Of a DNA stretch of 64,000 nucleotides, positions 1-25,215 are shown piece by piece. Source of the DNA: Ostreococcus lucimarinus (lineage: Eukaryota); the NCBI GenBank assembly GCA_000092065.1, contig CP000598.1. One strand, written 5' to 3'. The translations under genes were made by a program, and so were the position numbers. Position 1 is the stretch's first letter. Every line of letters starts with the position of its first letter. Below the pieces are notes generated by a model. It did not search any database, was not told the DNA's origin, and was given only the letters and a program-made list of their open reading frames with translations.

Positions 1-1908
1 AAAAAGCTCTGCGCCGGGGACGAAGTGTTGATCCCGGCGGTGTGCTGGTCCACGAGTTTGTGGCCGATCGTACAAATGGGCCTGATTCCAGTGTTCGTGG
101 ACGTGGACGTGGCGACGATGAACGTGGACTTGGACGACTTGGAAGCGAGAATCACGGATAAGACGCGAGGCGTGCTCGCGGTGCACGTCCTCGGCAACAT
201 GTGCGATATGGACAGGCTGATGGATATTTGTGCCCGTCGCGACTTGCTCCTCGTCGAAGACACGTGCGAATCGCTGGGAAGCACGTACGGCGGGAAGTGC
301 GTGGGGACGTTTGGGAGTTTTGGCTCGTACAGTTTTTACTTTTCCCACCACATCACCACGGGCGAAGGTGGAATGGTCGTGTGTCAGACTCAAGAAGACG
401 CCGATCTCGTCCGATGCTTGCGCGCGCACGGCTGGACGCGCGAGCTTTCTAACAAAGATGAGTTACACGAACAAAACGCGCACATAGATTCGCGTTTCAT
501 GTTCGTCAACGTCGGGTACAACTTGCGCCCCATGGAAATCTCTGGGGCTGTCGGGAAGTGCCAGCTTCTTCGTCTGGACTCGATGAACGCCAACAGAAAA
601 GAAAACCGCGAGCGCTTGCTTCGAGCTCTGCAGTCGCACGATAAATGGAACGATCAATTCCGCTTCCCGGTCGCCCCGAATGCGTCCGCCGACCCGGCGT
701 GGTTCGGCTTCGTGGCCGTGCTTCGACGCGATCTGCAGAAGCGCCTGCCGACGTATTTGGAATTTCTCACCAGACACAAGATTGAAAATCGTCCAATCAT
801 CAGCGGTAACTTTGTGCACCAGCCGGCGATCAAAACTTTGGGATTGAGCGTTGACCCGAACGGATATCCTGGCTCGGACGAGCTGGGCACGTGCGGGTTT
901 TTCATCGGCGTGCACACGTATCGCCTGTCGGATGCGCAGATCTCGTACCTCGCCGACACCATGCTCGCCTTCGACTTTGACTGCGCCGTGAACAGAAAAG
1001 TCGTGCTCGTGACTGGTGGCAGCGGTCTCGTCGGTCGAGCGCTCAAAGAACACGTCAAAACATCGGCGAACACAAACGATTCATGGATTTTTACATCTTC
1101 CAAAGATGCTGATTTGTGCTCTTACGACGAGACGAAGAGGCTCTTCGAGCGATATCGCCCGACGCACGTCATTCACCTCGCGGTGAAGCTCATGGCGGGC
1201 GGCGACATGTCGAAAATGGCGGCGAGTCTCATTCAGGATAACAACGCGATTAACGCTAATGTTCTTCGTTGCGCGCACGAAATCGACTGCGACAAGGTTG
1301 TCTCTGTCTTATCTTCTTTCGCTTACCCGAAAGACGTGAGTTTGCCGATCACAGAAAAGCGACTGCACGACGGTCCTTGCCATCCGTTGTATGAGTCTTA
1401 CGGTTCGTCAAAGCGTAACCTCGAAATTCTATCGCGCGCCTACCGCGCGCAACATGGTAGGAAGTTCGTCACCGTCATTCCGAGCAATATATTTGGAACC
1501 ATATCGCAACTGCGCGAGGGTGGTCCGGTCATCGACGCGCTCATGAGCAAGGCTGCGCAATCCGCGGCTACAGGTTCTGAATTCACATGCAGAGGCACCG
1601 GTGCGCCGTGCCGTCAGTTCTGCTACGCACCCGATCTAGCGCGCGTGCTCATTTGGTCTTTGGAACATTACGACGAAGAAGAGCCAATAAATGTCGCTGG
1701 GGAAGAGATCAGCATACGCGCCGTGGCGGAGCTCATCGCCAACATGTTCGGCGTCGAGAAACGCTTGTCGTTTGACGCGTCGTTTCCAGATGGGCCCATG
1801 TACCGCACGCTAAGCGATGATAAGCTCCGACGTCTGTATGAAGGTTACGAGCAAACCGATTTCGAAACGGCACTTCGAAGCGTCGTCGCACGCGTCATCA
1901 ACGCGTAA
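1..1908 (+). CDS. 5'-truncated bifunctional-looking protein. The N-terminal DegT/ColD-like PLP sugar 3-dehydratase domain (to ~nt 960) is fused in one open frame to a GDP-L-fucose synthase / GDP-colitose synthase-like SDR reductase (nt ~961-1908). An internal ATG at 961 could start a separate reductase gene instead.
   Basis: The frame is open from position 1 (KKLCAGDEVLIP...), so the gene begins upstream of the window. The motif FGSYSFYFSHHITTGEGG is DegT-like, with His in place of the canonical PLP-lysine (ColD/E1 3-dehydratase subfamily). The C-terminal half has KVVLVTGGSGLVGRAL (Rossmann) and YGSSK (YxxxK), typical of GER/FX-type GDP-fucose synthases. There is no stop between the two domains. 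Confidence 0.7.
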   Translation, partial: KKLCAGDEVLIPAVCWSTSLWPIVQMGLIPVFVDVDVATMNVDLDDLEARITDKTRGVLAVHVLGNMCDMDRLMDICARRDLLLVEDTCESLGSTYGGKCVGTFGSFGSYSFYFSHHITTGEGGMVVCQTQEDADLVRCLRAHGWTRELSNKDELHEQNAHIDSRFMFVNVGYNLRPMEISGAVGKCQLLRLDSMNANRKENRERLLRALQSHDKWNDQFRFPVAPNASADPAWFGFVAVLRRDLQKRLPTYLEFLTRHKIENRPIISGNFVHQPAIKTLGLSVDPNGYPGSDELGTCGFFIGVHTYRLSDAQISYLADTMLAFDFDCAVNRKVVLVTGGSGLVGRALKEHVKTSANTNDSWIFTSSKDADLCSYDETKRLFERYRPTHVIHLAVKLMAGGDMSKMAASLIQDNNAINANVLRCAHEIDCDKVVSVLSSFAYPKDVSLPITEKRLHDGPCHPLYESYGSSKRNLEILSRAYRAQHGRKFVTVIPSNIFGTISQLREGGPVIDALMSKAAQSAATGSEFTCRGTGAPCRQFCYAPDLARVLIWSLEHYDEEEPINVAGEEISIRAVAELIANMFGVEKRLSFDASFPDGPMYRTLSDDKLRRLYEGYEQTDFETALRSVVARVINA

Positions 1909-2034
1909 TACATCGGCTGTTTGACGATATACATCTTGTAAAAGTCGCATTTGTATGTCGCATACAGCTATGATGAGATAGTTCAGTAAGCGTAGCTCAA
2001 CGCTTTGTAAGTTGATCTACAAACTCTATAAACT

Positions 2035-3216
2035 CTACTTTTTCGTGCCGGCAAAGCTGTAGTGCGCCGCGCAAATCATCACGATAGCAGCGCCGGCGAC
2101 AGTCGACTCGGACAAGGTGGAGTAATCCATAAAGTATGCGGTAAAAAATATCAGCGCAAACTTGTTGGTGTTGTTGAGTATCGTAATACTCGTCGGGGTG
2201 ATCAAGCGATTGAGCTGAAACGCGGAAACGCTCAAGCAAAATCCTAGCGTGCACGAAACGAAGAGTGCGACGCACTGCGATTTTGTCGCGCCGCTCGCCA
2301 TAAACTTTTGTAGCGTCTCGTTTTCTCTTTGAGCGAACCCGACGATGGCGCACACGGGTAAGGATAGTAAGTTATTATAGTACGCCATGGTCCAGCTGTT
2401 CATATCGAGCTCGTTCACGAGCGATTTGACCTTGATTTGATACGCCGTCGTCGCCGCTACGTTCACCGCAAGCCAGGCGTACCCCGTAAAGTCAAAATTC
2501 GAAGCCGCGTCCAGATCGCCCGACGCGTACACCAACGACCCTGCGCACATTCCTAATATCGCCAAAATCCTCGGTTTCGTCTGCACCGTGCCCAGACAAA
2601 AATAATCCGCTATGGCGATCGTCACCGTACCTAAATTTCTTTGCACTATGAGCGTCGTCGCCGTCACGAACTTGAGCGCCAGCATGGACGACGCGAGCAT
2701 GGCGTAAAACAAAAGCACGAGCGCGAACCAACGTTTGGCTTTATGTCGCCGCACCGGCTCGATCTGCAGACTCAGCACCGATTTCCCGAACGCGAGCAAC
2801 ACCAGCGTCACCGCGTTTTGCGCGAACAGCACCGCGTTCGGGGCGGGGAAGAACCCCATGATTTGTTTATTCAGCACGGTGAGCGCGCTGCCGGATAGAC
2901 AAAACGCCGCGGCGACCAAGGTGATCGTGACGACCGCCATCGCGACGGCTGCGTGTCGTCCGCCGTCGCGCGCGATCGCGTCGTCCGGTTTCGCGTCGAC
3001 TCGAGGCCCGCCGTCTCGCGAGCCGCGCCGACGACTGACTCGCGCGCGTTTTGAATTCGTCCGTCGATTTCCGGAATTCCAAAATTCCACGTCAAAATTT
3101 TGCGCCGCGCCGCGTCCGGCTGGCGCCGCACCACTCCGCACGGGCGATCGCGCCCGGAAAGCGATCGGATCGTCGGGAAACTGATCAATAAACGACGTGC
3201 AATATTTTGATAGCAT
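2035..3216 (-). CDS. Golgi nucleotide-sugar transporter, TPT/GDP-sugar-transporter-like. It has a long Arg-rich N-terminal extension if the ATG at 3216 is used; an alternative ATG at 2940 lies just before the first transmembrane segment.
   Basis: The ORF is 393 aa with multiple hydrophobic segments (IVQRNLGTVTIAIADYFCLGT, AYFMDYS...) and resembles the SLC35C/VRG4 family. It ends ...AGTKK. The ATG at 3214-3216 was verified on the minus strand. Confidence 0.6.
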   Translation of the reverse strand: MLSKYCTSFIDQFPDDPIAFRARSPVRSGAAPAGRGAAQNFDVEFWNSGNRRTNSKRARVSRRRGSRDGGPRVDAKPDDAIARDGGRHAAVAMAVVTITLVAAAFCLSGSALTVLNKQIMGFFPAPNAVLFAQNAVTLVLLAFGKSVLSLQIEPVRRHKAKRWFALVLLFYAMLASSMLALKFVTATTLIVQRNLGTVTIAIADYFCLGTVQTKPRILAILGMCAGSLVYASGDLDAASNFDFTGYAWLAVNVAATTAYQIKVKSLVNELDMNSWTMAYYNNLLSLPVCAIVGFAQRENETLQKFMASGATKSQCVALFVSCTLGFCLSVSAFQLNRLITPTSITILNNTNKFALIFFTAYFMDYSTLSESTVAGAAIVMICAAHYSFAGTKK

Positions 3217-3287
3217 TAATATATTATTAAATATGATAATTCAGATCCGTCTGGTCATCGCAAACCCTGGATCCTTCGGACTGTGCT

Positions 3288-3930
3288 GATTCGACCCCCT
3301 GGAAATTTCAGACAGTTTCCCAAACGAGGCCCGTTTTTTCAAACGCCACCAGTGAGTTTTTTGAGCCCATTTGACCGACCGTGACTCAAGAACGACCCCC
3401 TCATTGTGTACATTCACTACTCTACGCGCGCGACGCGCCCGCGAACGCGCGAGAAAAGCGCACGGCGCGGTCGTACACGAACTTTTTTCTCTTCGCAGCG
3501 ACTTTTACGCGTCGAGACGTCCCAGCGACGGCTGGGGATCGCCATTTGATGCGATTTTGGACGATTTTGGCATTCGAGTCCCACGTGCTAAGTTGAGTCA
3601 TGACTCGTCAAATTTAGTAAAATTCAACACGCTTTTGCGGCGCCGTGAACGCGCACTTCGAAATAAAAACAAATTCACATCGCGTGAATCATTTGAGGTA
3701 AGCTTGAACGTTCAGAATACTCCGTGAAACTGCCTTGAACACCTTCGATTAAGATGTCAAACGTGTCGAATTTGGTACTTTTTTGTGAATTTGGGATATT
3801 TCACGCCGCGTTATCTCTCAATCGCGCGCTTTCCCCGCACGTCGGTTGACCTACACGCTCGTGAAATGTCTGAATGACCCCCTGTTTCAGGGGATCTGGA
3901 AACTGTCTGAAATTTCCAGGGGGTCGAATC
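3288..3930. repeat. MITE-like structure: a perfect 33-bp terminal inverted repeat (tgattcgaccccctggaaatttcagacagtttcc at 3288-3320, with its reverse complement at 3898-3930) enclosing ~577 bp of non-coding DNA.
   Basis: I matched the two arms base for base. There is no long ORF inside. The structure sits in the divergent intergenic region between the transporter (-) and the dehydratase (+). Confidence 0.55.
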
Positions 3931-4259
3931 CGCAAAGTCCCGGAAATTTCGAAAATTTGGATTCCTGCGCAGCGGGTGTCCCGCGATGATGATCGAAATC
4001 GTCTCGCATCATCGTATTCAGAGATGTATGAAATCTATGAAAATACGAAATGTGATTTAAATCAGTTTTTCCCGACGCCGCACCGACGTTCGTTTCTGCG
4101 CGCGCCGGTGCGCGCGGCGCCAATAGGCGAGGCGTCGCGTCGAGATCTCGTGAGCGTCGTCATCGAGCGCCCTCGAGGCGCGCGCGGTATTCGCGAGCAT
4201 GTCGTCGAGATAATCTCCGAAAATCTAGACGCGCTCGACCGAGACGCCCGTCCGCCCGC

Positions 4260-5450
4260 ATGCGCATCCTTCTCACCGGTGGCGCCGGCTTCATCGGCTC
4301 GCACGTCGCCGAGCGCCTCGCGTCGAGGCATCCCGAGTACACGGTGCGCGCACGATTTCGACCACGTGTGCGTGCGTCGAACAACGCACGGACTTTGCAC
4401 CCATCTCTCGCGCGAACGACTGACCGCGAACGACTCGTCGCGCTCGGACAGATTGTCGTCCTGGACAAGCTCGACTATTGCTCGAGCTTGAAAAATCTCG
4501 AACGCGCGAAAGAATGCGCGAACGTGCGGTTCGTCAAGGGCGATGTGCGTTCGTTCGATTTATTGAGTTACGTCTTGCAAAGCGAGCGCATCGACACCGT
4601 CGTGCACTTCGCCGCGCAGAGTCACGTGGACAACTCTTTCGGGAACTCGTACGAGTTCACGAAGAATAACATCGAGGGCACGCACGCGTTACTCGAGGCG
4701 TGCGTGCGAGCGCAGACGACCGAAATTCGACGATTCCTGCACGTGTCCACGGATGAGGTATACGGGGAAAATCTCATGGATTCAAACACCGAGCACGCGG
4801 CGCTCCTGACGCCCACCAACCCGTACGCCGCGACCAAGGCGGGCGCGGAGATGCTCGTCATGGCGTACGGACGCTCGTACGGATTGCCGTACATCATCAC
4901 TCGCGGAAACAACGTGTACGGGCCGAATCAGTATCCAGAGAAGGCGATTCCAAAGTTTTCAATCCTCGCGAAACGCGGGGAAAAGATTTCTATACACGGC
5001 GACGGCGACGTGACGCGTTCGTACATGCACGTCGACGATGCGGGTTCGGCGTTCGACGTCATTCTCCACCGCGGAACGCCGGCGCAGATTTATAACATCG
5101 GCTCGCGCGAAGAACGGACGATCTTGTCCGTCGCTCGGGATGTCTGTAAGCTCCTCGATCGCGACCCGGAAACGACCATCGAGCACGTGAGCGATCGAGC
5201 CTTCAACGACCGAAGATATTTCATCGATTGCTCAAAGCTTTTAGCGCTCGGATGGCGACAAGAAAAGTCCTGGGACGTCGGTCTCGCGGAAACCGTGCGT
5301 TGGTACTCGAATAACGATTTGAGCGCGTACTGGGGCGAATTCTCACCCGCGTTGCGCCCGCACCCTTCGGCGAGCGCGGATGGGCGACGACGATCGCTCG
5401 AGTTTGATTTCACGAATGATTCTGACGATCGCGCGACACCGACTTTGTAA
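4260..5450 (+). CDS. NAD-dependent dTDP/UDP-glucose 4,6-dehydratase (RmlB/UGD-like). It may contain a 108-nt in-frame intron at 4344-4451.
   Basis: The protein starts MRILLTGGAGFIGSHV and has YAATK (YxxxK). It is collinear with RmlB except for a 36-aa Arg-rich insertion between HPEYT and VVLDKLDY. That insertion is bounded by GT...AG (gtgcgc...cggacag). Confidence 0.8.
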   Translation: MRILLTGGAGFIGSHVAERLASRHPEYTVRARFRPRVRASNNARTLHPSLARTTDRERLVALGQIVVLDKLDYCSSLKNLERAKECANVRFVKGDVRSFDLLSYVLQSERIDTVVHFAAQSHVDNSFGNSYEFTKNNIEGTHALLEACVRAQTTEIRRFLHVSTDEVYGENLMDSNTEHAALLTPTNPYAATKAGAEMLVMAYGRSYGLPYIITRGNNVYGPNQYPEKAIPKFSILAKRGEKISIHGDGDVTRSYMHVDDAGSAFDVILHRGTPAQIYNIGSREERTILSVARDVCKLLDRDPETTIEHVSDRAFNDRRYFIDCSKLLALGWRQEKSWDVGLAETVRWYSNNDLSAYWGEFSPALRPHPSASADGRRRSLEFDFTNDSDDRATPTL

Positions 5451-5779
5451 TACGCGCATCTATCTTCCTCGGGCGCGAGTATCACTTTGCGCGTCCATGT
5501 AATTATTTGCGGCGCGCTGTTGGAGGCGGGTTGAAAAACACCCCGCGTGGCGTCACGCGTCACTCACCGCCTCGCTTCGCTCGATTATGACACGCGTCTC
5601 AATCGCTTGAGAGGAGGCAGAGAAAGCATGCTTTCCTAGCAACAGCCTTTATTTTTCGACCGAGGCGCGGACGAGTCGCGGGGACGCCGCGACGGCGTTC
5701 GGTTTTCGCGAAGGGAAACGACGCACTGAGGGGTGACGCGCACGACCGTTGGGGCGGAGGGGCGTTTTTCTAAGCGGCG

Positions 5780-7192
5780 ATGGATCATGGATGCCAACCA
5801 CCACGGACGTTTCAAGCGAGGCACTCGTGTCGACTGTGGTTCGTTTTCACCGTCTCAGTGGCGTGCGTCGTCGTCGGATCGCGCGGGGCGTCGTACGGAA
5901 CGTACGAGAACGACGGCGGTGTCACTCGGGAGCGGCGCGCGGATCGTGCGCGACGACCGGCTATAGAGTCTAGATCATCCTTGAGCGAAGTGACTCGTGA
6001 AACGTACGAGCGCGCACGAACGGTCTTCGAGGAATTTTTAAATGAGCGGAGCGCGCAGTGCGGGCGCGCGTTCACGGAGACGCGCACGCACTTTGGCGCT
6101 CCCGTGGAAACACCTCCATACCCTGGGGGACCTCCTCCTGGTACCGGTGCGGTGCTCACAGAGATGGTGCGAGCTGCGGCGGCGGCGTGGCATAGAAACA
6201 TGTCGTACGTGATGCGTGGTAAATGGGCGTTGGTTTCGGATAGCGACTGCGCTGAGGCAGAGTTTCAAGGATTTGCCTGCATGTTCCCAGGATTGTCGCG
6301 CTCGTGTCGAGCCTTGGAAGGTGAAAACCCGATGTTGAATTTACAAGACGCGCAAGACTTCTGGCGTCACTGGAGCAAAAATCTCAGCGTTGATGCGATT
6401 TTTTTATTTGGGCTCGCCGCGGATGCGCTGACAGACGTCCGTCGCGCGAGCGTCAAAGTGAAGAGTTTTCTCGAACACGACCTATCGAGTGCATTAGCGG
6501 GATCTGAGAGCGAAGGAATCGCAGTCGGTATACATTTTCGCAACCGTGGAGATATCAGACTCGATGGGAGATTGAGGATACCTCTGGAGCGTTACGTCGA
6601 GTGGGTGGATGGGCTTGGGAATTCAACGAAAATTCGTGCCGTTTACGTCGCCACAGATCACGATGGACTGGATGTTCGCGAGCTCAACGAGCGTTTTCCC
6701 GGTCGTTCGTACGAATTCCGAATGATCAAGCGTTTGTGGGCACCAGCGACCGCCACAAACCTGTGGCAGACGACGACGACGGCGACGGCGGGTGGTTTGA
6801 AGTTTGAAACCGCGAAAACACAAATGGTCGTCGAGGCGTTGAGCGACATCAACATTCTCTCGCACTGCGACGCATTTCTCGGCTCGATATCAAACTTTTT
6901 GCCCTTCATCATGTCGCTTTTACACGCGCGGGATCCACTTCGTGAACGCGGTCGTATTTGCGGTTTCATGAACACAAACGTAACCACTTTCGGAGGTCAC
7001 GCCGCGGCGGAAGAACTCACGAAAGCTACGAGCGAATTCGCCTCGGGGCTGGATGACGCGCACGCCGGAGACGTAGGATCAAAGGAAGCGATCGTTTCGT
7101 GTGTTGGGGATAGATCGTTACGCGACTATTGGATGGTGCTTTACGGGCATAACATTCCGAGCGAGACCGTAGACGTGCTGCCCCTGCGATGA
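5780..7192 (+). CDS. Type II membrane glycosyltransferase of the GT23 / O-FucT / NodZ superfamily (FUT8-like fucosyltransferase).
   Basis: The ATG is at 5780. There is an N-terminal signal anchor (LWFVFTVSVACVVVG). Conserved motifs GIHFRNRGD (compare HVRRTDK) and VYVATDHDGL (compare VYLATDDP) are present. Confidence 0.45.
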   Translation: MDHGCQPPRTFQARHSCRLWFVFTVSVACVVVGSRGASYGTYENDGGVTRERRADRARRPAIESRSSLSEVTRETYERARTVFEEFLNERSAQCGRAFTETRTHFGAPVETPPYPGGPPPGTGAVLTEMVRAAAAAWHRNMSYVMRGKWALVSDSDCAEAEFQGFACMFPGLSRSCRALEGENPMLNLQDAQDFWRHWSKNLSVDAIFLFGLAADALTDVRRASVKVKSFLEHDLSSALAGSESEGIAVGIHFRNRGDIRLDGRLRIPLERYVEWVDGLGNSTKIRAVYVATDHDGLDVRELNERFPGRSYEFRMIKRLWAPATATNLWQTTTTATAGGLKFETAKTQMVVEALSDINILSHCDAFLGSISNFLPFIMSLLHARDPLRERGRICGFMNTNVTTFGGHAAAEELTKATSEFASGLDDAHAGDVGSKEAIVSCVGDRSLRDYWMVLYGHNIPSETVDVLPLR

Positions 7193-7280
7193 ACGTAGAA
7201 ATGATCCATCCAACACAAATACTACTTGTAACTACTCGCAAGCTATTTTGTTCGCTATTTTGTTCGTTGTCGATACGATT

Positions 7281-8858
7281 TTATCGGCGTCCACCCTCGT
7301 CGAGAAGTCTTTTGATTTCCGCGGTGGGGTACTTTGACTTGTAGACAAAGTGCGGTAAAGGTCCCGCCGGATCGAGATTCTGGACGGGATCTGTTTGAGG
7401 CACCCATATATCAACCTTTCTGAGCCATTTCGCGGATATCGTGAATTGTTTCTCTTCGTGCCCGCCGCCGGGATACGGCCAGATGATCAAGTGCGAATCT
7501 TTCGCGAGGAAAAAGGACGAAAAGCCTACGCCGCCACCCGGGCAGACAAGAGTTGACGCGTTGAGAAATACGTCGATTTGTTCTTCCAAAGTGGTGTCAG
7601 GCGTAATGACGTAGTGCTTGACATTTTCGGCGCCGCGAGTCGATCGCAGCATACCGAGCACTTCCTCTTGATTGTCAAAGTCGTAAAAAGAGTACGAATC
7701 TTCCCGTCGCTTTGTGACGAACACAGTCGCGTTCTTCGAAGCCTTACGTTCGGGGTCGCGCCCGATGTTGCGAATGATGTGATCTCTGTACCCTTCGACG
7801 TCCGAGGCGTTCGCATGTAATATGCGTGCCAAGTGGTCTGGAGATCCAATGACGAGATGTTCGTAACACGTCGTCTCTCCTTGGGCGAGCGCTCGCAACT
7901 CTACGCCTAAAGCCCGCGAGAGAACCTCGACGTGTCTTTCGCACGCGGGGACCGCTAGGTGCGCGGTGTGGGGTAAATTCACCGGGTGGGCCGTCGTACA
8001 ATTCCTCATCACTAGAGCGGTGCGCTTCGTGCTCGCGCTATTCCAATGTGTTGAATACGACGAAGGTGCATCGTCAAGGTTTTGTGACAAGAAACGAAGA
8101 CGCGTCCAAATCCCAAAAAAGTTGTCTGCAAGCATATGCCCCCAGTTTCCAGCGGCAAAATAGGACGCCAACGTGAAAAATCCTTTGAGTTCAATCGGCC
8201 ATTCTCGATTCTTGCCGTTCGCGTCGACGTGAGAGAGTGTGGTTGCGTACTGAATGTCATTGGGCATCGCCGCATCCACGCGTACGACGCCGTACGACAC
8301 ACCAGCGGAGTAGTCACCGCTCGTCGACTGAACCGGATCCACCGCGTACACAACTCCTCGCTCGAGCCCCGCTTGCGTGAGCAATTCTTCGTCTCCAAAC
8401 AATGTCACCTTCGCGACGTATGGCGGGTCCAGAGGAGTCGCGCCGTACGCGGACTGTCTCGGAAACGACACGCAGGCGTGCTTCACGTAACAAGAAAACT
8501 GCGCTTTGCCGTTGACCGCAAAAGTTCTCTCGCAGCGTAGCTTTGACGCTCGGCGGTGCGTTCCCATCGCGCCGTCAACGCTAAACGACGCTGTCTTTGA
8601 GCTGTGAGAAGAGTTGTCAGTGCTCTCTCTCTCGCGCTCTTCACCGACCGAGGTCGTCGACGTCGACCTCGCCTCGACCCGTGGGTTGACGATATGCGAC
8701 GACGTGTCATCAAATCGCACGCGCGCCGTTATCGAGGCGAGAAGACGAGTTTCGCCTCGCCACGTGAGGCAGACGCTCGCGAGCGCGAGCGCGAGGACGA
8801 GGAGAAATAGTCCCGCGCGTCCAGGACGACCAGTGTGACTTCGCAGCGCTGAATCCAT
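7281..8858 (-). CDS. Type II membrane glycosyltransferase, GT61 / DUF563-like.
   Basis: The ATG at 8858 was verified. There is a signal anchor (LFLLVLALALASVCL). The C-terminal motif LEEQIDVFLNASTLVCPGGGVGFSSFF matches the GT61 pattern xEEQ(I/V)...A...HGAGLTN. Confidence 0.45.
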   Translation of the reverse strand: MDSALRSHTGRPGRAGLFLLVLALALASVCLTWRGETRLLASITARVRFDDTSSHIVNPRVEARSTSTTSVGEERERESTDNSSHSSKTASFSVDGAMGTHRRASKLRCERTFAVNGKAQFSCYVKHACVSFPRQSAYGATPLDPPYVAKVTLFGDEELLTQAGLERGVVYAVDPVQSTSGDYSAGVSYGVVRVDAAMPNDIQYATTLSHVDANGKNREWPIELKGFFTLASYFAAGNWGHMLADNFFGIWTRLRFLSQNLDDAPSSYSTHWNSASTKRTALVMRNCTTAHPVNLPHTAHLAVPACERHVEVLSRALGVELRALAQGETTCYEHLVIGSPDHLARILHANASDVEGYRDHIIRNIGRDPERKASKNATVFVTKRREDSYSFYDFDNQEEVLGMLRSTRGAENVKHYVITPDTTLEEQIDVFLNASTLVCPGGGVGFSSFFLAKDSHLIIWPYPGGGHEEKQFTISAKWLRKVDIWVPQTDPVQNLDPAGPLPHFVYKSKYPTAEIKRLLDEGGRR

Positions 8859-9189
8859 GACACGCGTTCGCGCGCGCGATCGACCGGGTGAATCATGGTG
8901 CCATCGCCGTCGCGAGAGGTGTCTCGCGACGTTTTAAACGCTCGATCGCTTTTGTGAAGTCGTCGAGCTTTGAGGTGCGATGTTTGCAGAATGACCTCTG
9001 AACCCGGCGGCGGTTTGAAGAGTAGTCTACCCGAGGTGCGACTTCATCGTGCGAGTATGTTTGGATCGCGAGTATTTGTACTGCATTACTTAGTACTGTT
9101 ACAAACGTATTCAGAATACTATCACGGCACTATTGCACCGTGTTACGTTCCCGCGCCGACAAAAATTGCAGTCTTTGTCGACGTCGCGA

Positions 9190-10398
9190 TCATCCATCCA
9201 TAATAGTCAACTTATCCCCCGGAAGAATTTCACGGATATCAACGCACGCATCACCTTTAGGTTCGAAATTTTCGTCACACCAAGTACACCCCCCATGATG
9301 TACGCCGAGGCAAGCTGAACAGTTGGCAAAGTGAAGCAAGTACGACGCGACGGCGGCGCCCTTTGCCCGCGGCGGTTTGTGCGCAAACCAATGCTCTAGA
9401 AAGCTGTAATGAAAAACTGGCCCTATGTTTACGACTGGGTTAATCTCTACTTGAAAGTGCGCGTCGGTCACGGTTCGCGCCATGAACGCAGCTAATTCTC
9501 GGAAGAAATCGCTGTGTGGTTTCCCCGCCGCCATGACGCTGCTCAACACGTCTATTTTCGAACTAAAATCAGCCAAAAGAGGAGAGATGACGTCCGGTTT
9601 GCTCGAATCAAAGTGCTGATATATCCCACCGCGACTCTCATCGCCCGGTTCGAGCACCATGAGCGCCTCGAACTCGCTCAAAATTGGCCGCCACGACTTC
9701 TTGCATTCCACGTCCAAGTCAAACGCCAATCCTCCAAACTTTTCAAGTAAAAGCGGTCGCGACATTTCCGCCAATTTCAACCCATGGTTCGATCGCGAGC
9801 TGTTCATTTTACGCACGGCCTCGTCCATGCCCTCGATTCCACTTTCTTTGGCGTACTCGTCCAAAAACTTGGCGATGCCCTTGTCGGTGAAGAACACGTA
9901 TCGCAAATCCGGCATGCACTCGAGGAACGATTTTATAAACGGCGCTTTCACGGCCGGCACGCACGTGGTCTTCCACGTGAGAAATCTCGTGTATTCTCGT
10001 CGCGATGCGCCCTCGCACGCGTATTCGGTTTGCGGGAGATCGTTTCCGCGCAAAACGTACTCGTCCCAAACGCGCGTGGGCGTCGCGCTCGCCGCGCCTT
10101 CTCTCACCTCGCGCACGCGACGAGGCGCGTCGCACGGTGCGTCACCATCGTCGCCGTCTTCGCGCGGATCGTTCGCGAATGCATCGTCGCCGCCGTCGGA
10201 CGTCGCGCGCGCGAATCCACCGTCGCCCCGTCCCGAGGCTCGCGACACGTCGGCGGCGAGCCCAGGGCGCGCGCGCGCCCGCCTCGAGCCCGAGAACAGG
10301 CGTCGTTCGCGCGACGACGCGACGACGCACGCCGTACCGAGCAGCGCGACGGCGATGAAAACGCGCTTACTCCGCCCCGCGCGCACCTTGCCCGTCAT
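9190..10398 (-). CDS. Type II membrane glycosyltransferase, GT32 (Gly_transf_sug, OCH1-like DXD) family.
   Basis: The ATG at 10398 was verified. There is a signal anchor (VFIAVALLGTACVV). Motifs PDLRYVFFTD and LLLEKFGGLAFDLDVEC match the GT32 pattern YGG.Y.D.D..C. Confidence 0.45.
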   Translation of the reverse strand: MTGKVRAGRSKRVFIAVALLGTACVVASSRERRLFSGSRRARARPGLAADVSRASGRGDGGFARATSDGGDDAFANDPREDGDDGDAPCDAPRRVREVREGAASATPTRVWDEYVLRGNDLPQTEYACEGASRREYTRFLTWKTTCVPAVKAPFIKSFLECMPDLRYVFFTDKGIAKFLDEYAKESGIEGMDEAVRKMNSSRSNHGLKLAEMSRPLLLEKFGGLAFDLDVECKKSWRPILSEFEALMVLEPGDESRGGIYQHFDSSKPDVISPLLADFSSKIDVLSSVMAAGKPHSDFFRELAAFMARTVTDAHFQVEINPVVNIGPVFHYSFLEHWFAHKPPRAKGAAVASYLLHFANCSACLGVHHGGCTWCDENFEPKGDACVDIREILPGDKLTIMDG

Positions 10399-10594
10399 CG
10401 ACGACGACCGCGCGTTCGCGTTCGCGTTGTGGGGCGACGTCGCGACGGGCGCGCGTTCGCCCCGAGTCGTCGGCGCGCTTCAAAGCTCGACGCGGAGACG
10501 AATTCGATCGATCCGACCATCGCGCACCGCGAATGTCCGACGCGTCACGCGAACCGGCGCGCGTCGAGTAGAGCGACTCGGCGCGCGCGCCGCG

Positions 10595-11395
10595 ATGCGC
10601 GTGCTCGTGCTCGGGTCGAGCGGGTTGATCGGCGCACCCTTGGTGGCTCGTCTTCGTCGCGCCGGTCACGATGTCACGGAATGGGACGTCGCCATGGATC
10701 GCGCGCACGATTTAACGGACGCCGCGAACGTGCCTGGCGCGCGCGACGCGATCGAGTCGAGTGATTTCGTCTTCTTTCTCGCCTTTGACGTCGGCGGCGC
10801 AAAGTACATCAGTACTCCCACCGCGAGTTTCATCCATCGAAACAGTCTCTTGATGGCGAACACGTTTAGTTTACTGCACGGCAAGCGGTTCGTTTTCGCC
10901 TCGAGCACGATGTCAAACATGGACGTCCCTTACGGCACTTTAAAACGTCTCGGCGAGCACTACACGAGCGTGCTCTCTGGAATCTCTGTGCGATTCTGGA
11001 ACGTCTACGGTCCTCAAAAGTACGGCGAGAGATCGCACGTGATCACCGATTTTATTCACAAGCTTCGAACGACCGGTTCGATTACCATGATGACTTCTGG
11101 CGCAGAAAAGCGCCAGTTTCTGCACACAGAAGACTGCGCGCGGTGTTTGGAAACAATCGCCGCGCACTACGACGAGATGCCACCCGTAGTAGACGTCACG
11201 AGTTTCGAGTGGACGACTGTTAGGGAGCTGGCTGAGTTGCTTTGCGATGACGTGGTCGCTCGTAACGACAACCGAGACAGCCACACGAAGTCGAACGAAC
11301 CGAGTCCGTTCATCCTTAGTTACTGGCGCCCCGCGATAAGTTTACGAGAAGGCATCGCGCAACTGCTCGCAGAATCAAGGACGGCGAAACGTTAA
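10595..11395 (+). CDS. Short NAD(P)-dependent epimerase/dehydratase (extended SDR).
   Basis: The ATG at 10595 begins MRVLVLGSSGLIGAPLV (GxxGxxG); PYGTLK gives YxxxK. The upstream part of the tracked ORF (9659-10594) is antisense to the GT32-like gene and is not taken as coding. Confidence 0.55.
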   Translation: MRVLVLGSSGLIGAPLVARLRRAGHDVTEWDVAMDRAHDLTDAANVPGARDAIESSDFVFFLAFDVGGAKYISTPTASFIHRNSLLMANTFSLLHGKRFVFASSTMSNMDVPYGTLKRLGEHYTSVLSGISVRFWNVYGPQKYGERSHVITDFIHKLRTTGSITMMTSGAEKRQFLHTEDCARCLETIAAHYDEMPPVVDVTSFEWTTVRELAELLCDDVVARNDNRDSHTKSNEPSPFILSYWRPAISLREGIAQLLAESRTAKR

Positions 11396-11599
11396 AGACG
11401 TAGTGCGCAAAACACGTAGCACTCTTAGTAGTTTAGCAGTAGTGTTCAACTTAGCCGTAAAACGATGCTTTAAGACGCCGAGATGGAGAATGGCTCGTCC
11501 TCACTCCGCAGCGCTTTGTCACGCGAAGACGCTCGCGAGTCAGAAGTACGATGAGACATCACTACAAACCCACACACGTGATCTCACAGTAGCTTTACG

Positions 11600-13117
11600 A
11601 TGCCGCGATTCAGTAGGAAACGCGCGTTGAGCATACTTTTTGCGTGCGTCGTCACGAGTTCGATTTATTTCTACGCTTCGCACACGGGACGTTCGAAAAT
11701 CTCGATAGCAGTCGACGACATCGCGAAACGTGCGAGTGCGCTCCATTCGCCACGCTCGCGAGATGTGGAAAGCTTACGCAGCGTCTCTCGTCGCGCGAGC
11801 CCGGTTGCGAGTTTTGACTTTGAGTTCGCCGAGTTGAAGTTTCAAAGAGTCGTCGACGCGAGCGCCGTCGGCGACGCCGCTTCAACCACGCCGGCGTCTA
11901 TATCGTGCGACTCCGCTATTAACGACTCCGCGCGAGTCTTGACGGATGATTTCAGCGAAATCCTGGCGTGGGCATCGGCGGTGCGGCGCGAGTCGAAACT
12001 AGTGCATCTGGTGAAGTCAGCGACGCCGAGGGTGTTCGTCACCGGCTTGCTACACAACAGCTGCGTGCTCATGCACCACTACGTCGTCGAGGTGTTGAAG
12101 TTTATTCTCCTGTACGGCAACGATGAAGGTTTTGAGAATGTCTTCGTATCCCTGTACTCGAGCGGCGACGGTGACTGCGCGGTGTTGACGCTCGAAGCGT
12201 TCAAAGAACTTTTAGACGCCATCGGCGTTCCAAACGTCATCAAGACTCGGCAACGCGAGCGTATTCCTGGCATGGCGCGCATCGACTTTTTGCAAAGCAT
12301 TCGAAACGCGGCGATGGAACCTTTATATTTGAGTGATACACCGTACGACGAAGTCGTGTTTCTTTCTGACGCATTCTTTTGCGCCGGAGACATTGTGCGC
12401 TTGCTACGTCACACCGAAGCGAGCATCAAGTGTGGATTAGATTTTGATGGTACCACGAACGCGATGAAGTTTCGAGACACGTGGGTCGCGCACGACATGA
12501 GTGGACGCATGTTCACCAAAGAGTTCCCGTTTGTGCACGACGTCGTCTCGTCGCACGCCTTGAACGGCGGGGCACCTTTCCAGGTTTTGTGCTGCTGGAA
12601 TGGCCTACTGACCTTGCGTGCAAAAGTATTTACTGATCTCGGCGTGCGGTTTAGACGCTCTTTAGACGATACAGAGTGTCACGCCGCGGAAACCGAGCTC
12701 ATTTGTCACGATTTTGCGGCGCTTGGACACCCGAAGATGTTGGTTGATCCGCAAGTGACGGTGACGTATACAAAGGCGGAGTACGTCGCGCTGAGTAATT
12801 CGCGCTCGAGCCCGCACTCGTATTCTTTGAGGCGCACAAACATGTTCTCGAATGAGTCGATCGCTACGGTGGAGACGTGGGCAGAGCGCCCGTCGAGCAC
12901 GGAATGTGCCCCACTCGATGGGCACGCGGGCGATCATCCAGACAGAGGACGAATTCGACACGTCGATTGGAACGCGCACTACGCCGAAATGGGTGTTCCT
13001 GTTGCATCGGAGAAGAAGATTACGAGTTTACACGCCTGTGACGGTCCTTCGGCGAGCCAGTGCGTGCTGAGTGGTGGTAAACGCGCATTTGTTTCGCGCG
13101 ACGCGATGAGTAGATGA
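11600..13117 (+). CDS. Type II membrane protein; the putative glycosyltransferase (Cap59/GT69-like) assignment is a guess.
   Basis: The ATG is at 11600. There is a signal anchor (ALSILFACVVTSSIYFYA) and a luminal globular domain with a DxD-like DAFFCAGD. It lies inside the glycosylation island. Confidence 0.35.
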   Translation: MPRFSRKRALSILFACVVTSSIYFYASHTGRSKISIAVDDIAKRASALHSPRSRDVESLRSVSRRASPVASFDFEFAELKFQRVVDASAVGDAASTTPASISCDSAINDSARVLTDDFSEILAWASAVRRESKLVHLVKSATPRVFVTGLLHNSCVLMHHYVVEVLKFILLYGNDEGFENVFVSLYSSGDGDCAVLTLEAFKELLDAIGVPNVIKTRQRERIPGMARIDFLQSIRNAAMEPLYLSDTPYDEVVFLSDAFFCAGDIVRLLRHTEASIKCGLDFDGTTNAMKFRDTWVAHDMSGRMFTKEFPFVHDVVSSHALNGGAPFQVLCCWNGLLTLRAKVFTDLGVRFRRSLDDTECHAAETELICHDFAALGHPKMLVDPQVTVTYTKAEYVALSNSRSSPHSYSLRRTNMFSNESIATVETWAERPSSTECAPLDGHAGDHPDRGRIRHVDWNAHYAEMGVPVASEKKITSLHACDGPSASQCVLSGGKRAFVSRDAMSR

Positions 13118-13235
13118 ATAAAACATTCAGATTTGCTGGCAGCGGTGATTGGAACGCTTGCAGTATGACTTTCGTTTGACGTGATGAAACGTGTAGTAAC
13201 CTGTGCATTATAACTATCAACATTTATTACCAATT

Positions 13236-14258
13236 TTAGACTACATTTGAATACAGAAACGTCGACCCGATGACGAGCGCTATGCCGAGAGATGCCGTAA
13301 CGCTCAGGTTGTGTCCGTCGTTGGCGAACACCGTCGTCGCGAGGGCGCAATTACATATGGAAATAGACACGGCAAAGCATTTGAGCACGTTCCCCGCGTA
13401 TCGCAACACCGCCGCGACGACTAAACCACCGGCGGCTTGTAGCGCGATGACGAGCAACACGACGCTGTCGTATCCTTGAAACACGCTTTCGTTCGCGCGC
13501 AAGCGCTCTCCATCGCGCCACACTGATCCAATCAACGCCACTGGAAGTGAAAAGCACGCCAGTTGTGCGTTTCGGAACCATACCGATCGCTTTTGAGCGT
13601 CCACTTCTTTGTACATTTTCTCTAAATACGCCCCCGCGAAACCAGACGTAAACGCGGCGGTGAGCACGGCGACCATACCTCGCAGAGTGTCTTCCGGCCG
13701 CGCTCTATCCGACGGCACATTGCTCCGATGTCCTTCCTCGTTCTGTACCATGATCATCCCACACACGAGCACCAACAACGCTACATATTGTTTACGCGTG
13801 ATTCGCGTTCCCAGGAGCACGACGCTACAAATCGCGCTCGTGAGAATTTTGCTCTGCGAACACACCATGTATGCGGTCGGGCTCAGCAACCGCACGCCCT
13901 CGAAAAGGAGGTTGTTTTGTATCACGTACAGCACCGATGGGACCGCGAGCCGCGTCGCGTTGGATGGCACCTCGCGAAGCGCGTCCCGGGCGGCGCTTTG
14001 TCCGTCGGACGCGACCAACAAAATATAGCTCAAAACGAGTTTGACGAGCTCGGCGCTCGCGATGACTGTGGATACGACGTAAGGCGTCGCGGCTGTTCGA
14101 TACGAAAACTTCGTCATGAGCACCAAGGCGGTGTTTTGGATCGTCAAGATGAAAAGCGCCAGCGCTTGATGCTTTCGCGACGCTGACGAAGTGACTGGAA
14201 CGACGCCTGATGCACGCGTCGTGGTGTTTGCCTTTCGCTCCAGGTAAGGTGCCTGCAT
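13236..14258 (-). CDS. Nucleotide-sugar transporter of the UDP-Gal/CMP-Sia (SLC35A, Nuc_sug_transp) family.
   Basis: About 10 hydrophobic segments are present, and TSGFAGAYLEKMYKE matches the SLC35A motif GFAGVYFEKILK. The first in-frame ATG is at 14258; the tracked start at 14300 is TTG. Confidence 0.7.
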   Translation of the reverse strand: MQAPYLERKANTTTRASGVVPVTSSASRKHQALALFILTIQNTALVLMTKFSYRTAATPYVVSTVIASAELVKLVLSYILLVASDGQSAARDALREVPSNATRLAVPSVLYVIQNNLLFEGVRLLSPTAYMVCSQSKILTSAICSVVLLGTRITRKQYVALLVLVCGMIMVQNEEGHRSNVPSDRARPEDTLRGMVAVLTAAFTSGFAGAYLEKMYKEVDAQKRSVWFRNAQLACFSLPVALIGSVWRDGERLRANESVFQGYDSVVLLVIALQAAGGLVVAAVLRYAGNVLKCFAVSISICNCALATTVFANDGHNLSVTASLGIALVIGSTFLYSNVV

Positions 14259-19722: not shown

Positions 19723-20772
19723 TTACACGATTACATTGATATGTTTCGCCAGTTCAACGGCATACTCATAGAGTTCTACGTCGTATTTGAACTTTTGATA
19801 TAAAGCTGCCTGAACTTGTACATCGCCTTGATAAAAATCCTCGTCCTTCACACTACGTAGAGTATTGTTTGAGCTACGACTCGAATCAATCGTGAAGTTG
19901 GTAACACCAAGATTTTGAAAGAACACGCGCAAATCCTGATCGTATGTTTCTCTGACCAATATTGCGCTGAAGTGTCGTAATCGTTCTTTCGCGGTTTCAA
20001 GAAGAAGGGCCATTATTTCATCTCTAGTCATCGTCGCTAGTTGCGTGGTGTTCTTCAATGATGTCGCTGTCGCTATCGATTGTATGTCATCAGTTCTTGT
20101 TATGCCAGTCAAAGAAAATATTATATGCCCTGGTACGCTTTCACGATGTGTGTCCATGAGGAGGTTTTCTCTGAATGAATGCGATGCCAGTCTAGCCGCA
20201 TAGCTTGTCGCAGACAGCTCGGAAATTTGCTGCGCTGTATACCCGCTCTTTCTGAAATAGTTGACGTTATGCGCGATATGACTGTTATACATGTCGTATG
20301 GATGTCGAATAGCGGTGGCGTACACCCAAGGACGTTCAGTGCTTGTGTTGAAATGAGGTGACATAGGGTGCTCCATCCCAAAAAATTCAACTCGTCGTCC
20401 CCCGGTAGTCAACTCAGAGAACAAATCCTGCTGCTGTTCGAAGTCACCGTAGGCACGCGCGTCAGGTCCGCAGGTTGGTGAGGTCACTAACTCACAGTTA
20501 CAACTCCGGTTTCCGCGCACTCCTGCTCCTGACGCATCCATGGAGCTGCACAGCGTTGTCCCACCAGCCTTCTTCAAGTGCACAAAATATACTACACTCT
20601 GTCCCTGGCGCGTTCTGAACCGCCTAACAGCATCAATATCACTTCGCTCGTATTCCGTCGGGATGACGTGCTTTGCAACTCGTTTTACCAGATCATCACC
20701 AGAGTTTCGCAAGTATATCGATGAGCCCCACGTGGCGATTAAACACCCTATGACGAAGATTCGCGCTTGCAT
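19723..20772 (-). CDS. Type II membrane carbohydrate sulfotransferase (Sulfotransfer_2 / HS6ST-like).
   Basis: The first ATG is at 20772 (the tracked start at 20814 is TTG). There is a signal anchor (IFVIGCLIATWGSSIYL). The 5'-PSB-like motif VVYFVHLKKAGGTTL matches FIHIQKTGGTTF. Confidence 0.6.
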   Translation of the reverse strand: MQARIFVIGCLIATWGSSIYLRNSGDDLVKRVAKHVIPTEYERSDIDAVRRFRTRQGQSVVYFVHLKKAGGTTLCSSMDASGAGVRGNRSCNCELVTSPTCGPDARAYGDFEQQQDLFSELTTGGRRVEFFGMEHPMSPHFNTSTERPWVYATAIRHPYDMYNSHIAHNVNYFRKSGYTAQQISELSATSYAARLASHSFRENLLMDTHRESVPGHIIFSLTGITRTDDIQSIATATSLKNTTQLATMTRDEIMALLLETAKERLRHFSAILVRETYDQDLRVFFQNLGVTNFTIDSSRSSNNTLRSVKDEDFYQGDVQVQAALYQKFKYDVELYEYAVELAKHINVIV

Positions 20773-21198: not shown

Positions 21199-21213
21199 CC
21201 TCCTTAGCTTTCT

Positions 21214-25212: not shown

Positions 25213-25215
25213 TCA

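Follow-up and report, generated by a model that had tools for sequence, protein, structure and literature searches.

3,6-Dideoxyhexoses are regarded as characteristic of bacterial O-antigens; for eukaryotic cases such as nematode ascarylose and Trichinella tyvelose, we know of no biosynthetic genes, and to our knowledge a GDP-linked 3,6-dideoxy-D-hexose is not known from bacteria, in which tyvelose is CDP-linked. The GDP-4-keto-6-deoxy-D-mannose 3-dehydratase ColD (WbdK; Escherichia coli O55 and Yersinia pseudotuberculosis) has a histidine in place of the Schiff-base lysine, a Ser-His-His motif, an EDxCE motif and no Fe-S motif, all features that it shares with the algal protein analyzed here. 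These common features suggest the same PMP-dependent 3-deoxygenation with transamination-based recycling of the cofactor, although identity to ColD is only 36-45%, and the algal/viral form is reductase-fused, does not lie in a gmd-man operon and has its gene in a eukaryotic nucleus or a giant-virus genome, with a GDP-linked substrate predicted. ColC (GDP-L-colitose synthase; E. coli O55 WP_000698393; locus L018, 4864-5787), which acts directly after ColD, has in common with the algal reductase domain the SDR/GDP-fucose synthase (GFS) fold, the Ser-Tyr-Lys triad and NADPH. ColC has the Cys109 and His179 equivalents and epimerizes C-5, as L-colitose formation requires, whereas the algal domain has Phe and Pro at these positions and falls phylogenetically with the eukaryote-type GFS. 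In E. coli, colC is a separate gene that precedes colD with a 4-nt overlap; the fused gene has the reverse order.

Reduction of a GDP-4-keto sugar without epimerization, giving a D-deoxy sugar, is known from members of the GFS and GMD families, namely the heptose C4-reductases of Campylobacter jejuni, which carry the annotation GDP-L-fucose synthase, and Rmd and GDP-6-deoxy-D-talose synthase, but these are stand-alone bacterial enzymes with 3-hydroxylated substrates, none of which is known to be fused to a 3-dehydratase. The E1/E3 system of the CDP pathway (RfbH/AscC with AscD) employs the same His-for-Lys family and also leads to a 3,6-dideoxyhexose; however, E1 has a [2Fe-2S] cysteine motif and needs the E3 reductase, whereas the algal protein is without the motif. 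The Fe-S motif divides E1 and SpnQ from ColD (review, PMC8987622). In human GFS (FX, TSTA3; 4b8z, 4bl5), a Cys/His dyad is the acid-base pair for C-5 epimerization; the C116A and H186A substitutions abolish activity, and with C116S the C5-unepimerized intermediate is prematurely reduced to a D-sugar (PMC12362431).

The gene of interest lies at the 5' end of a 64,000-nucleotide stretch of Ostreococcus lucimarinus DNA (the window). On the + strand, frame 1 stays open from nucleotide 1 to a TAA at 1906-1908, giving 635 codons and running off the window's 5' end; window 1-1908 (+) thus holds the last 635 codons of a gene with 748. The missing 5' end was recovered from TARA metagenome contigs that are 99.8-99.9% identical to window 1-12000, and the full 748-residue protein, with N terminus MSQTNGK and C terminus VINA, is predicted identically on 121 metagenome contigs, Tara among them. 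Pfam matches are to DegT_DnrJ_EryC1 (residues 5-281, 1.6e-63) and Epimerase (residues 335-565, 2.6e-35). Relative to an 80%-identical homologue, pN/pS is 0.14 for the N-terminal and 0.17 for the C-terminal domain; both domains are under purifying selection. The features of the gene and its convergent neighbor are as follows.

1..960, + strand: ColD-type PMP/PLP sugar 3-dehydratase domain, assigned by Pfam DegT, ColD structure matches and the AF2 model; the last 320 of ~433 domain residues, the first 113 codons lying upstream of the window
256..270, + strand: Glu86-Asp87-Thr88-Cys89-Glu90, aligned on ColD L-E-D-N-C-E (native Asp159/Glu162)
343..351, + strand: Ser115-His116-His117, equivalent to ColD Ser187-His188-His189
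961..963, + strand: internal ATG, Met321, a hydrophobic residue within the final helix of the ColD domain
967..999, + strand: interdomain linker AFDFDCAVNRK, part of a family-wide LxFxF motif (junction alignment)
1000..1905, + strand: GDP-fucose-synthase-like extended SDR domain, from the Pfam Epimerase match and human GFS 4b8z
1015..1035, + strand: GGSGLVG, the GxxGxxG dinucleotide-binding motif, its three Gly kept in 83-84 of 86 fused homologues
1312..1320, + strand: Ser438-Ser439-Phe440, with Ser438 as the catalytic Ser (S107 in E. coli, S114 in human) and Phe440 at the general-base Cys position (C109/C116)
1399..1413, + strand: Tyr467...Lys471, the YxxxK of the SDR triad (Y136/K140 in E. 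coli, Y143/K147 in human)
1525..1527, + strand: Pro509 at the general-acid His position (H179 in E. coli, H186 in human)
1906..1908, + strand: TAA stop, the end of the open reading frame
2035..3216, - strand: GDP-mannose-transporter (Vrg4) family membrane protein of 393 residues, convergent neighbor, from solved-structure matches

The best solved-structure match of the N-terminal domain is E. coli ColD (2.3e-69 for the part in the window, 1.6e-83 for the full domain), followed for the full domain by E1 (1.8e-65), with the best aminotransferase, GDP-perosamine synthase, at 1.8e-41. ColD is likewise the top fold match of the AF2 model (TM 0.91, rmsd 2.6 Å, to 2gms). The HMMER alignment to solved ColD structures places Ser115-His116-His117, within SFYFSHHITTGEGG at residues 111-124 (nt 331-372), on Ser187-His188-His189, and the deposited ColD mutants 3b8x (H188N) and 2r0t (H188K) reveal that the first His of Ser-His-His is the lysine position. 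His116 thus stands in place of the Schiff-base (internal-aldimine) lysine, in agreement with the sequence-only reading, which had proposed a DegT-family domain of the ColD/E1 type rather than an aminotransferase; each of the three residues recurs in 87 of 88 fused homologues. Glu86-Asp87-Thr88-Cys89-Glu90 is invariant in 23/23 diverse fused homologues, and we take the EDxCE-region residues (ColD Asp159/Glu162) to be cofactor ligands. The E1-type Cys-rich Fe-S insert (rdCyCapgCdntC) is not present in the query and aligns to gaps there. The N-terminal domain has the DegT (fold-type I aminotransferase) fold and, by sequence, belongs to the ColD/E1-type 3-dehydratase family, with ColD as its nearest characterized relative and 3-dehydratase activity predicted.

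The C-terminal domain is 39-40% identical to human GFS (4b8z, 6.8e-60), compared with 27% to E. coli Fcl and 20-21% to E. coli O55 ColC, and its model superimposes on human GFS with TM 0.89-0.94 and rmsd 1.6 Å (pLDDT >90). Its closest characterized relatives are the human and Naegleria GFS, and a bipartition in our neighbor-joining trees, which are rough and without bootstrap (Kimura distances, own neighbor-joining routine), holds 87 fused C-terminal domains together with human GFS. The earlier description of this domain as a ColC-type epimerase-reductase has therefore to be given up, the domain being only ~21% identical to ColC, grouping with eukaryote-type GFS and missing the epimerization dyad. 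The SDR triad is intact (Ser438, Tyr467 and Lys471; Tyr is kept in 84/87 and Lys in 78/87 fused homologues), as are, in comparison with human GFS, the NADPH motif, Lys194 and Arg215, with Lys282 changed to Arg; all three belong, with Trp208, to the GDP-binding residues of human GFS, and Arg215 and Lys282(Arg) are beta-phosphate ligands. Five other residues of human GFS are all replaced: Asn79 by Met and Asn140 by Tyr in the sugar pocket, the guanine-stacking Trp208 by Arg, and the dyad residues Cys116 and His186 by Phe440 and Pro509. Since the Trp208 position also varies across the fused family (M/F/R/Y/L), it is not assured that the reductase is specific for GDP. The substrate of the domain would, unlike that of human GFS, be without a 3-OH group.

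The dyad is missing from nearly all of the 87 fused homologues examined. Where ColC, Fcl and human GFS have Cys, the family has V50/F17/E7 and others, and where these enzymes have His, Pro is found in 74 of 87; a few distant fused homologues retain the dyad, e.g. P0105 (S-T-C ... H). Unfused Fcl/ColC-like genes adjoining ColD genes in bacterial and viral loci (n = 35) encode Cys in 32 cases and both Cys and His in 26. The His of GPHDNF was considered as the counterpart of E. coli Fcl His179 and was rejected, since residue counting leads to SNSHVIP (human His186). The loss of the Cys/His dyad suggests that the reductase domain would not carry out C-5 epimerization, although another residue might act as a substitute base, and we predict from the sequence that it is an NADPH-dependent 4-ketoreductase without epimerase activity.

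The two domains are joined in one frame by an 11-residue linker, without an intervening stop or frame change up to the TAA, so the in-frame fusion to a GFS-family domain proposed from sequence alone stands. Eleven residues is also the median linker length across fused homologues. The fused family counts no fewer than 87 database clusters and is frequent among protists, bdelloid rotifers and giant viruses; among the viral contigs, a scan with a single-protein query found none, whereas an alignment-based query found relatives. Fusion is the usual form of the ColD plus GFS-like family in eukaryotes and giant viruses, contrary to the expectation that a fused eukaryotic version would be unusual, and the fused gene is present in 0 of 80 bacterial loci examined. 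Apparent long bacterial matches (L041, L052 and L058) proved to be adjacent separate genes.

That the fusion is merely apparent, with one protein for ColD and another, the reductase, whose translation begins at the internal ATG (961), is an arrangement that the sequence-only reading had itself raised, and to which we give very little weight. The ATG is 13 codons ahead of the Rossmann fold, natural ColD-only alleles in close relatives end in the linker (allele L179 stops inside it), and giant-virus contigs L103-105 carry the two domains as overlapping separate ORFs. Against this, only 44 of 88 homologues have Met in the Met321 column (M44/L21/I17/F4/V2), and the 80%-identical homologue P0005 has Leu there; judged by this alignment, the ATG is not a conserved start codon. 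Uninterrupted fusion is also seen across the database clusters and in complete ORFs that span both domains in several protist transcriptome assemblies (TRINITY; MMETSP Chromera), and the same 748-residue product recurs on the 121 contigs. The ColD-only alleles show that some lineages either do without the reductase domain or have it supplied in trans.

The locus is eukaryotic, as had been supposed: window 11600-13114 encodes exactly XP_001422291.1 of O. lucimarinus CCE9901, on a 149,386-bp record, and the fused gene lies on the small outlier chromosome (SOC), chromosome 18, of this species, the size of which is given as ~150 kb (table in Yau et al. 2016, PMC5082852). The SOC is lower in GC and rich in glycan genes, and the window contains glycosyltransferases, nucleotide-sugar transporters, methyltransferases and a copia element. 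The gene does not head this island, as had been thought, for metagenome contigs reveal further glycan genes upstream, including GT90 and Methyltransf_22. A GDP-mannose 4,6-dehydratase (GMD), which had been looked for immediately upstream, is present neither in the window nor in the 8 kb upstream of it (identical metagenome contigs), and no E3-like gene is found near the fused gene. The nearest 4,6-dehydratase (4260-5450), 2.3 kb downstream, is of the dTDP/UDP-glucose type (TIGR01181 329 bits; 6vlo 3.2e-80) and is not retained beside fused genes elsewhere. For the convergent neighbor at 2035..3216, the solved homologues are GDP-mannose transporters only (9s35, 4.8e-16; 5oge, 1.1e-7), and on an unrelated 205-kb contig (L182) a 38%-identical homologue of it (3e-53) adjoins a 36%-identical fused gene. 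GMD lies beside the ColD/reductase gene pair in relatives from giant viruses and bacteria (L100/101, L103/104, L058 and L154), and transferases with GT11 and GT10 domains flank the fused genes of L181 and L183.

These observations bear on which reactions the protein may catalyze. A ColD-ColC fusion making GDP-L-colitose, by 3-deoxygenation followed by C-5 epimerization and 4-reduction, would be in accord with the real ColD-type N-terminal domain, with the position of the C-terminal domain within the broad GFS/ColC family and with the dyad retained by distant homologues such as P0105. Such a product appears improbable, however, given Phe440 and Pro509 where E. coli O55 ColC has Cys and His, the inactivity of human GFS C116A and H186A, the closer identity to and clustering with human GFS rather than ColC, and the E. 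coli order colC-colD, which is the reverse of that of the fused domains. Since L-colitose needs C-5 epimerization and the dyad is absent, the colitose-type part of the earlier proposal of a GDP-3,6-dideoxyhexose is unlikely, whereas a nucleotide-linked 3,6-dideoxyhexose remains a reasonable product. It is also rather doubtful, though worth consideration, that the same two steps act on UDP- or dTDP-4-keto-6-deoxy-D-glucose, supplied by the 4260-5450 neighbor, to give a paratose/abequose-type NDP-3,6-dideoxyhexose. The proximity of an NDP-glucose 4,6-dehydratase, the locus without GMD and the poor conservation of GFS Trp208 and the sugar-pocket Asn residues are consistent with this route; but the nearest characterized relatives of both domains are GDP-sugar enzymes (ColD and, after E1, GDP-perosamine synthase; human and Naegleria GFS), Arg215, Lys282(Arg) and Lys194 are retained, and the conserved partner is a GDP-mannose-transporter homologue. 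Moreover, it is GMD or GT10/GT11-domain genes that are found beside the gene pair of relatives, and the 4,6-dehydratase neighbor is not conserved beside fused genes elsewhere.

Automatic annotation of relatives as aminotransferase, E1 or GDP-fucose synthase, and NCBIfam scores under the equivalog cut-offs (E1 model NF011936, 241 bits against 423, with a query lacking its first 113 residues; GFS model NF047922, 152 against 500), could be taken to mean that the N-terminal domain is an ordinary sugar aminotransferase or that the C-terminal domain is a decaying, inactive remnant. We consider either highly improbable. A plain aminotransferase was rejected on account of the His at the catalytic Lys position, and matches to ColD/E1 surpass those to any aminotransferase by 20-40 orders of magnitude; an inactive C-terminal domain was rejected on account of purifying selection (pN/pS 0.17) and the intact triad, together with the intact NADPH motif and the confident model (pLDDT >90).

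On balance, we lean towards a bifunctional enzyme producing a GDP-3,6-dideoxy-D-hexose that is imported into the Golgi and placed on surface glycans. The 748-residue protein, probably cytosolic, would use its ColD-type domain, with PMP and with His116 serving as acid/base, to strip an NDP-4-keto-6-deoxyhexose, most likely GDP-4-keto-6-deoxy-D-mannose, of its 3-OH; the homology underlying this step is strong and the chemistry is predicted from it. As in ColD, transamination rather than an E3-type Fe-S reductase would restore PMP. The GFS-derived domain would then reduce the 4-keto group with NADPH, giving GDP-3,6-dideoxy-D-hexose, with L-colitose not expected. Should hydride transfer take place on the face used by GDP-fucose synthase, the product would be GDP-3,6-dideoxy-D-arabino-hexose, i.e. 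GDP-tyvelose, an analogue of GDP-mannose; the tyvelose configuration is thus the most likely one, with both nucleotide and product being predictions. The GDP-mannose-transporter-like neighbor is a probable Golgi importer of the product, after which SOC glycosyltransferases may place the sugar on surface glycans, the determinants of susceptibility to prasinoviruses in this algal group. Our literature searches yielded no report of a 3,6-dideoxyhexose in Mamiellales, nothing relevant on colitose, tyvelose or 3-dehydratase in algae, protists, rotifers or giant viruses, and no paper describing a ColD::GFS-like fusion.

More speculatively, eukaryotes and giant viruses may share a pathway to GDP-3,6-dideoxy-D-hexose (GDP-tyvelose or its 4-epimer), via a fusion of ColD to an epimerase-dead GFS that arose from adjacent giant-virus genes; in Ostreococcus the pathway might remodel surface glycans from the 'viral immunity' chromosome, and possibly drain the GDP-4-keto-6-deoxymannose of prasinovirus GMD, altering virus susceptibility. 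This wider scheme is a tentative one. From a family so conserved and abundant in marine protists, bdelloid rotifers and giant viruses, 3,6-dideoxy sugars are predicted in eukaryotic and viral glycans. The family also suggests how GDP-fucose synthase, with its three activities, can shrink to a simple reductase after fusion to an upstream 3-deoxygenase. It would further link one particular chemistry with prasinovirus resistance, which in this picoalga of global importance is controlled by the hypervariable chromosome. The published SOC table lists one 'Pyridoxal/vitB6' gene for this chromosome (PMC5082852).

The gene at window 1-1908 is a genuine fusion and was correctly spotted in the sequence-only reading; the combination is a variant of known enzyme kinds. 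The open frame, both Pfam domains and the motif are all located, and therefore that observation was correct as written:

1-1908, plus strand: fused open reading frame, frame 1, open from nt 1, 635 codons, extending 5' of the window
1906-1908, plus strand: TAA stop of the fused frame, frame 1
aa 5-281, plus strand: DegT_DnrJ_EryC1 domain (Pfam, 1.6e-63)
aa 111-124 (nt 331-372), plus strand: motif SFYFSHHITTGEGG, within the fused frame
aa 335-565, plus strand: NAD-dependent epimerase/dehydratase domain (Pfam, 2.6e-35)

TARA and other marine metagenome contigs match window 1-12000 at 99.8-99.9% identity, and gene calls on near-identical contigs give a full-length protein of 748 aa, starting MSQTNGK, which is identical on 121 contigs and automatically named 'CDP-6-deoxy-D-xylo-4-hexulose-3-dehydrase'. 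The interdomain linker has 11 residues, the family median, and an LxFxF motif is family-wide; the ATG at 961 falls in a variable homologue column (M44/L21/I17/F4/V2; Leu in an 80%-identical homologue), and ORFs from the transcriptomes of relatives run through both domains. The exact product of window 11600-13114 is XP_001422291.1 (Ostreococcus lucimarinus CCE9901), from a 149,386-bp record that agrees in size with the small outlier chromosome (SOC, chromosome 18; ~150 kb) in the table of Yau et al. 2016 (PMC5082852); the single 'Pyridoxal/vitB6' gene given there for this chromosome is probably the fused gene. Literature searches found no publications on the fused ColD::GFS-like family (GFS, GDP-fucose synthase).

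The N-terminal domain is ColD-type: when the full domain is compared with all solved structures, E. coli O55 ColD scores 1.6e-83, E1 1.8e-65 and a putative NDP-4-keto-6-deoxyglucose 3-dehydratase 5e-49, versus 1.8e-41 for the best aminotransferase, GDP-perosamine synthase. Window S115-H116-H117 aligns with ColD Ser187-His188-His189, in a register identified via the ColD mutant entries H188N (3b8x) and H188K (2r0t), which bears out the proposed His at the Schiff-base Lys position; His116 is kept in 87 of 88 fused homologues. The Cys-rich stretch of E1 (rdCyCapgCdntC) is absent, being gaps in the alignment to E1; the [2Fe-2S] motif is present in E1 and SpnQ and absent from ColD, in which PMP is recycled by transamination with glutamate (reviewed in PMC8987622). 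When superposed on ColD, an AlphaFold2 model with a mean pLDDT of 83.7 (>90 over most of both domains) gives a TM score of 0.91. The sole low-confidence spot within its folded domains is the S-H-H active-site loop (residues 320-322 of protein P0001; window aa 115-117), with a pLDDT <50 that plausibly reflects a model without cofactor.

The second domain does not conform to the 'ColC-type epimerase-reductase' originally proposed. In alignment, using the authentic colC and colD of E. coli O55:H7 CB9615 as reference (colC lies upstream of colD there, with a 4-nt overlap), it is 21% identical to ColC, 27% to Fcl and 40% to human GFS; among solved structures it is closest to human GFS (6.8e-60) and Naegleria GFS, with E. 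coli Fcl at 7e-26. It retains GGSGLVG, Ser438, Tyr467 and Lys471; however, whereas ColC, Fcl and human GFS all have the Cys/His dyad for C-5 epimerisation, it has Phe440 at the general-base Cys position (E. coli 109, human 116) and Pro509 at the general-acid His position (179/186). Across 87 fused homologues these columns are V50/F17/E7 and others, and P74/Q7 and others, respectively. Human GFS C116A and H186A are inactive, and in C116S premature reduction of the C5-unepimerised intermediate leads to the release of ~70% GDP-D-altrose (PMC12362431). In the window domain, Met403 and Tyr464 stand in place of Asn79 and Asn140, which line the sugar pocket of human GFS; Arg215 (a beta-phosphate ligand) and Lys194 are retained, Lys282 is Arg, and the guanine-stacking Trp208 is Arg531, in a column that varies across the fused family. 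Purifying selection acts on both domains to a similar degree (pN/pS 0.14 for the N-domain and 0.17 for the C-domain against the 80%-identical homologue, with dS saturated), which indicates that the C-domain is in use rather than a decaying remnant. From its residues, we assign it as a GFS paralogue in which the epimerase machinery has been lost.

Three of the neighbouring genes are:

2035-3216, minus strand: convergent neighbour, GDP-mannose-transporter-like (solved homologues 9s35, 4.8e-16, and Vrg4, 1.1e-7)
4260-5450, plus strand: dTDP/UDP-glucose 4,6-dehydratase-like gene (TIGR01181, 329 bits; best structure 6vlo, 3.2e-80)
10595-11392, plus strand: short GFS/GME-like SDR, 266 aa (best solved matches human GDP-fucose synthase, 9e-10, and GDP-mannose 3,5-epimerase, 1.5e-7)

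GDP-mannose transporters are the sole solved homologues of the first product, and on an unrelated 205-kb contig a 38%-identical transporter homologue (3e-53) lies beside a 36%-identical fused gene; enzyme and transporter are thus a conserved pair. The dehydratase scores 48 bits with the gmd model versus 329 with TIGR01181. Its Rossmann motif is directly followed by an Arg/Ser-rich insertion of ~45 residues, which may be spliced out; the O. lucimarinus model at NCBI that shares its 90% cluster has 360 aa versus 396 in the window. Beyond it lie weak GT61 and DXD transferases, the short SDR and a CAP59-type mannosyltransferase, followed by a second nucleotide-sugar transporter and a methyltransferase. 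The short SDR, with a His at the His179 column and the Cys109 region deleted, might act in trans on a GDP-sugar. Upstream of the fused gene, near-identical metagenome contigs carry a 105-aa ORF, which on variant contig L016 has a cold-shock domain, two ORFs of unknown function, a GT90 gene, a third such ORF and a Methyltransf_22 gene; a GDP-mannose 4,6-dehydratase (GMD), whose presence immediately upstream was a suggested check, is not among these genes.

In the chemistry that we propose, the ColD domain would 3-deoxygenate GDP-4-keto-6-deoxy-D-mannose, and the 4-keto product would then be reduced without C-5 epimerisation, giving a GDP-3,6-dideoxy-D-hexose. The colitose-type product of the sequence-only reading required an epimerase; with Phe440/Pro509 in place of the dyad the second domain would be a reductase only, and L-colitose is therefore unlikely. 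The GFS hydride face is unchanged by C-5 epimerisation, as seen with L-fucose and the D-altro by-product of C116S, and such same-face delivery makes the arabino configuration, i.e. tyvelose (3,6-dideoxy-D-mannose), the more likely product. Tyvelose also fits the GDP-mannose-type neighbours, namely the transporter and the CAP59-like transferase, which presumably has GDP-mannose-type donor specificity. GDP as the nucleotide is uncertain: the vicinity has no GMD, the Trp208 position is not conserved, and the adjoining dehydratase is of the glucose series. The predicted chemistry of the fused protein is directly testable.

The suggestion that the fusion is unusual needs revising: the fused form is common in eukaryotes and giant viruses, and no fused ORF occurs in any of the 80 bacterial loci kept from a scan of about 186,000 species of bacteria and archaea, one genome apiece. 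That scan gave ColD-only matches, the best (55-58% identity) in Bdellovibrionaceae and Vicinamibacterales. Among the 120 best listed of 7,386 relatives at E <= 1e-10, those with the fused architecture include proteins of Bathycoccus prasinos, Chromera velia and bdelloid rotifers (Rotaria, Adineta), alongside many metagenome clusters and complete ORFs from transcriptomes (TRINITY, MMETSP). Giant-virus contigs with the fused gene include L108 (159 kb) and L181 (132 kb), the latter also carrying Pox_A22, PCNA, Rpb1 and TFIIB and, at L181:7367-9055, an SDR+GT11 fusion near the fused gene, one gene (Methyltransf_21) upstream. On the giant-virus-like contig L183, a 1068-aa GT2/GT31/GT10/Methyltransf_21 protein (4651-7857) adjoins the fused gene for P0105, which has an intact Cys/His dyad and is a candidate for a true fused enzyme of colitose type.

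At bacterial and viral loci, unfused Fcl/ColC-like genes beside ColD genes keep the Cys in 32 of 35 cases (26 with His, six with Arg), whereas nearly all the fused homologues have lost the dyad; dyad loss thus tracks the fusion lineage. The three exceptions (S-N-Y-K-R, where Asn and Arg occupy the dyad positions) are the giant-virus contigs L103-105 (129-428 kb), where separate ColD and GFS-like ORFs (~5750-7860) overlap by ~20 nt in the domain order of the window fusion, and in L103 and L104 GMD follows ~6 kb further on; this arrangement may represent the pre-fusion state. On contigs L100/101 a dyad-intact pair directly adjoins GMD. In a rough neighbour-joining tree, fused C-domains and human GFS form one bipartition, with the giant-virus GFS-like genes next out and E. 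coli Fcl, ColC and bacterial neighbours farther. ColD-only alleles (a gene on contig L179 and about 12 other clusters; 71-90% identity to the window N-domain) nest inside the fused clade. The L179 gene (860-2242; P0017; 89% aa and 82% nt identity) ends ...AFDFTDIAH and stop, its homology to the window ceases at nt 977, within the linker, and no SDR/reductase gene lies downstream in L179.

The chromosomal context of the fused gene varies between species. In a related species, the 29-kb contig L002 has the 80%-identical homologue (P0005) among housekeeping genes (Rpc34, RbcX, MYST acetyltransferase, kinases), adjoining a UDP-glucose/GDP-mannose dehydrogenase, and is not an obvious glycan island. 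Compared with window 5450-13236, strain variant L014 has a Nuc_sug_transp gene directly after the 396-aa dehydratase and is without the ~8 kb bearing the GT61, DXD, short-SDR and CAP59 genes, indicating that the outlier chromosome is structurally polymorphic in natural populations. Two further features lie farther along the window:

21214-25146, minus strand: Ty1/copia-type polyprotein, 1310 aa (domains RVT_2, rve)
33545-41368, plus strand: 2607-aa ORF with 13 DUF285 repeats (1193 bits)

The copia polyprotein lies in a low-GC block (window 18000-28000; 0.44-0.49 versus about 0.55 elsewhere), and the repeats of the 2607-aa ORF suggest a surface-repeat protein.
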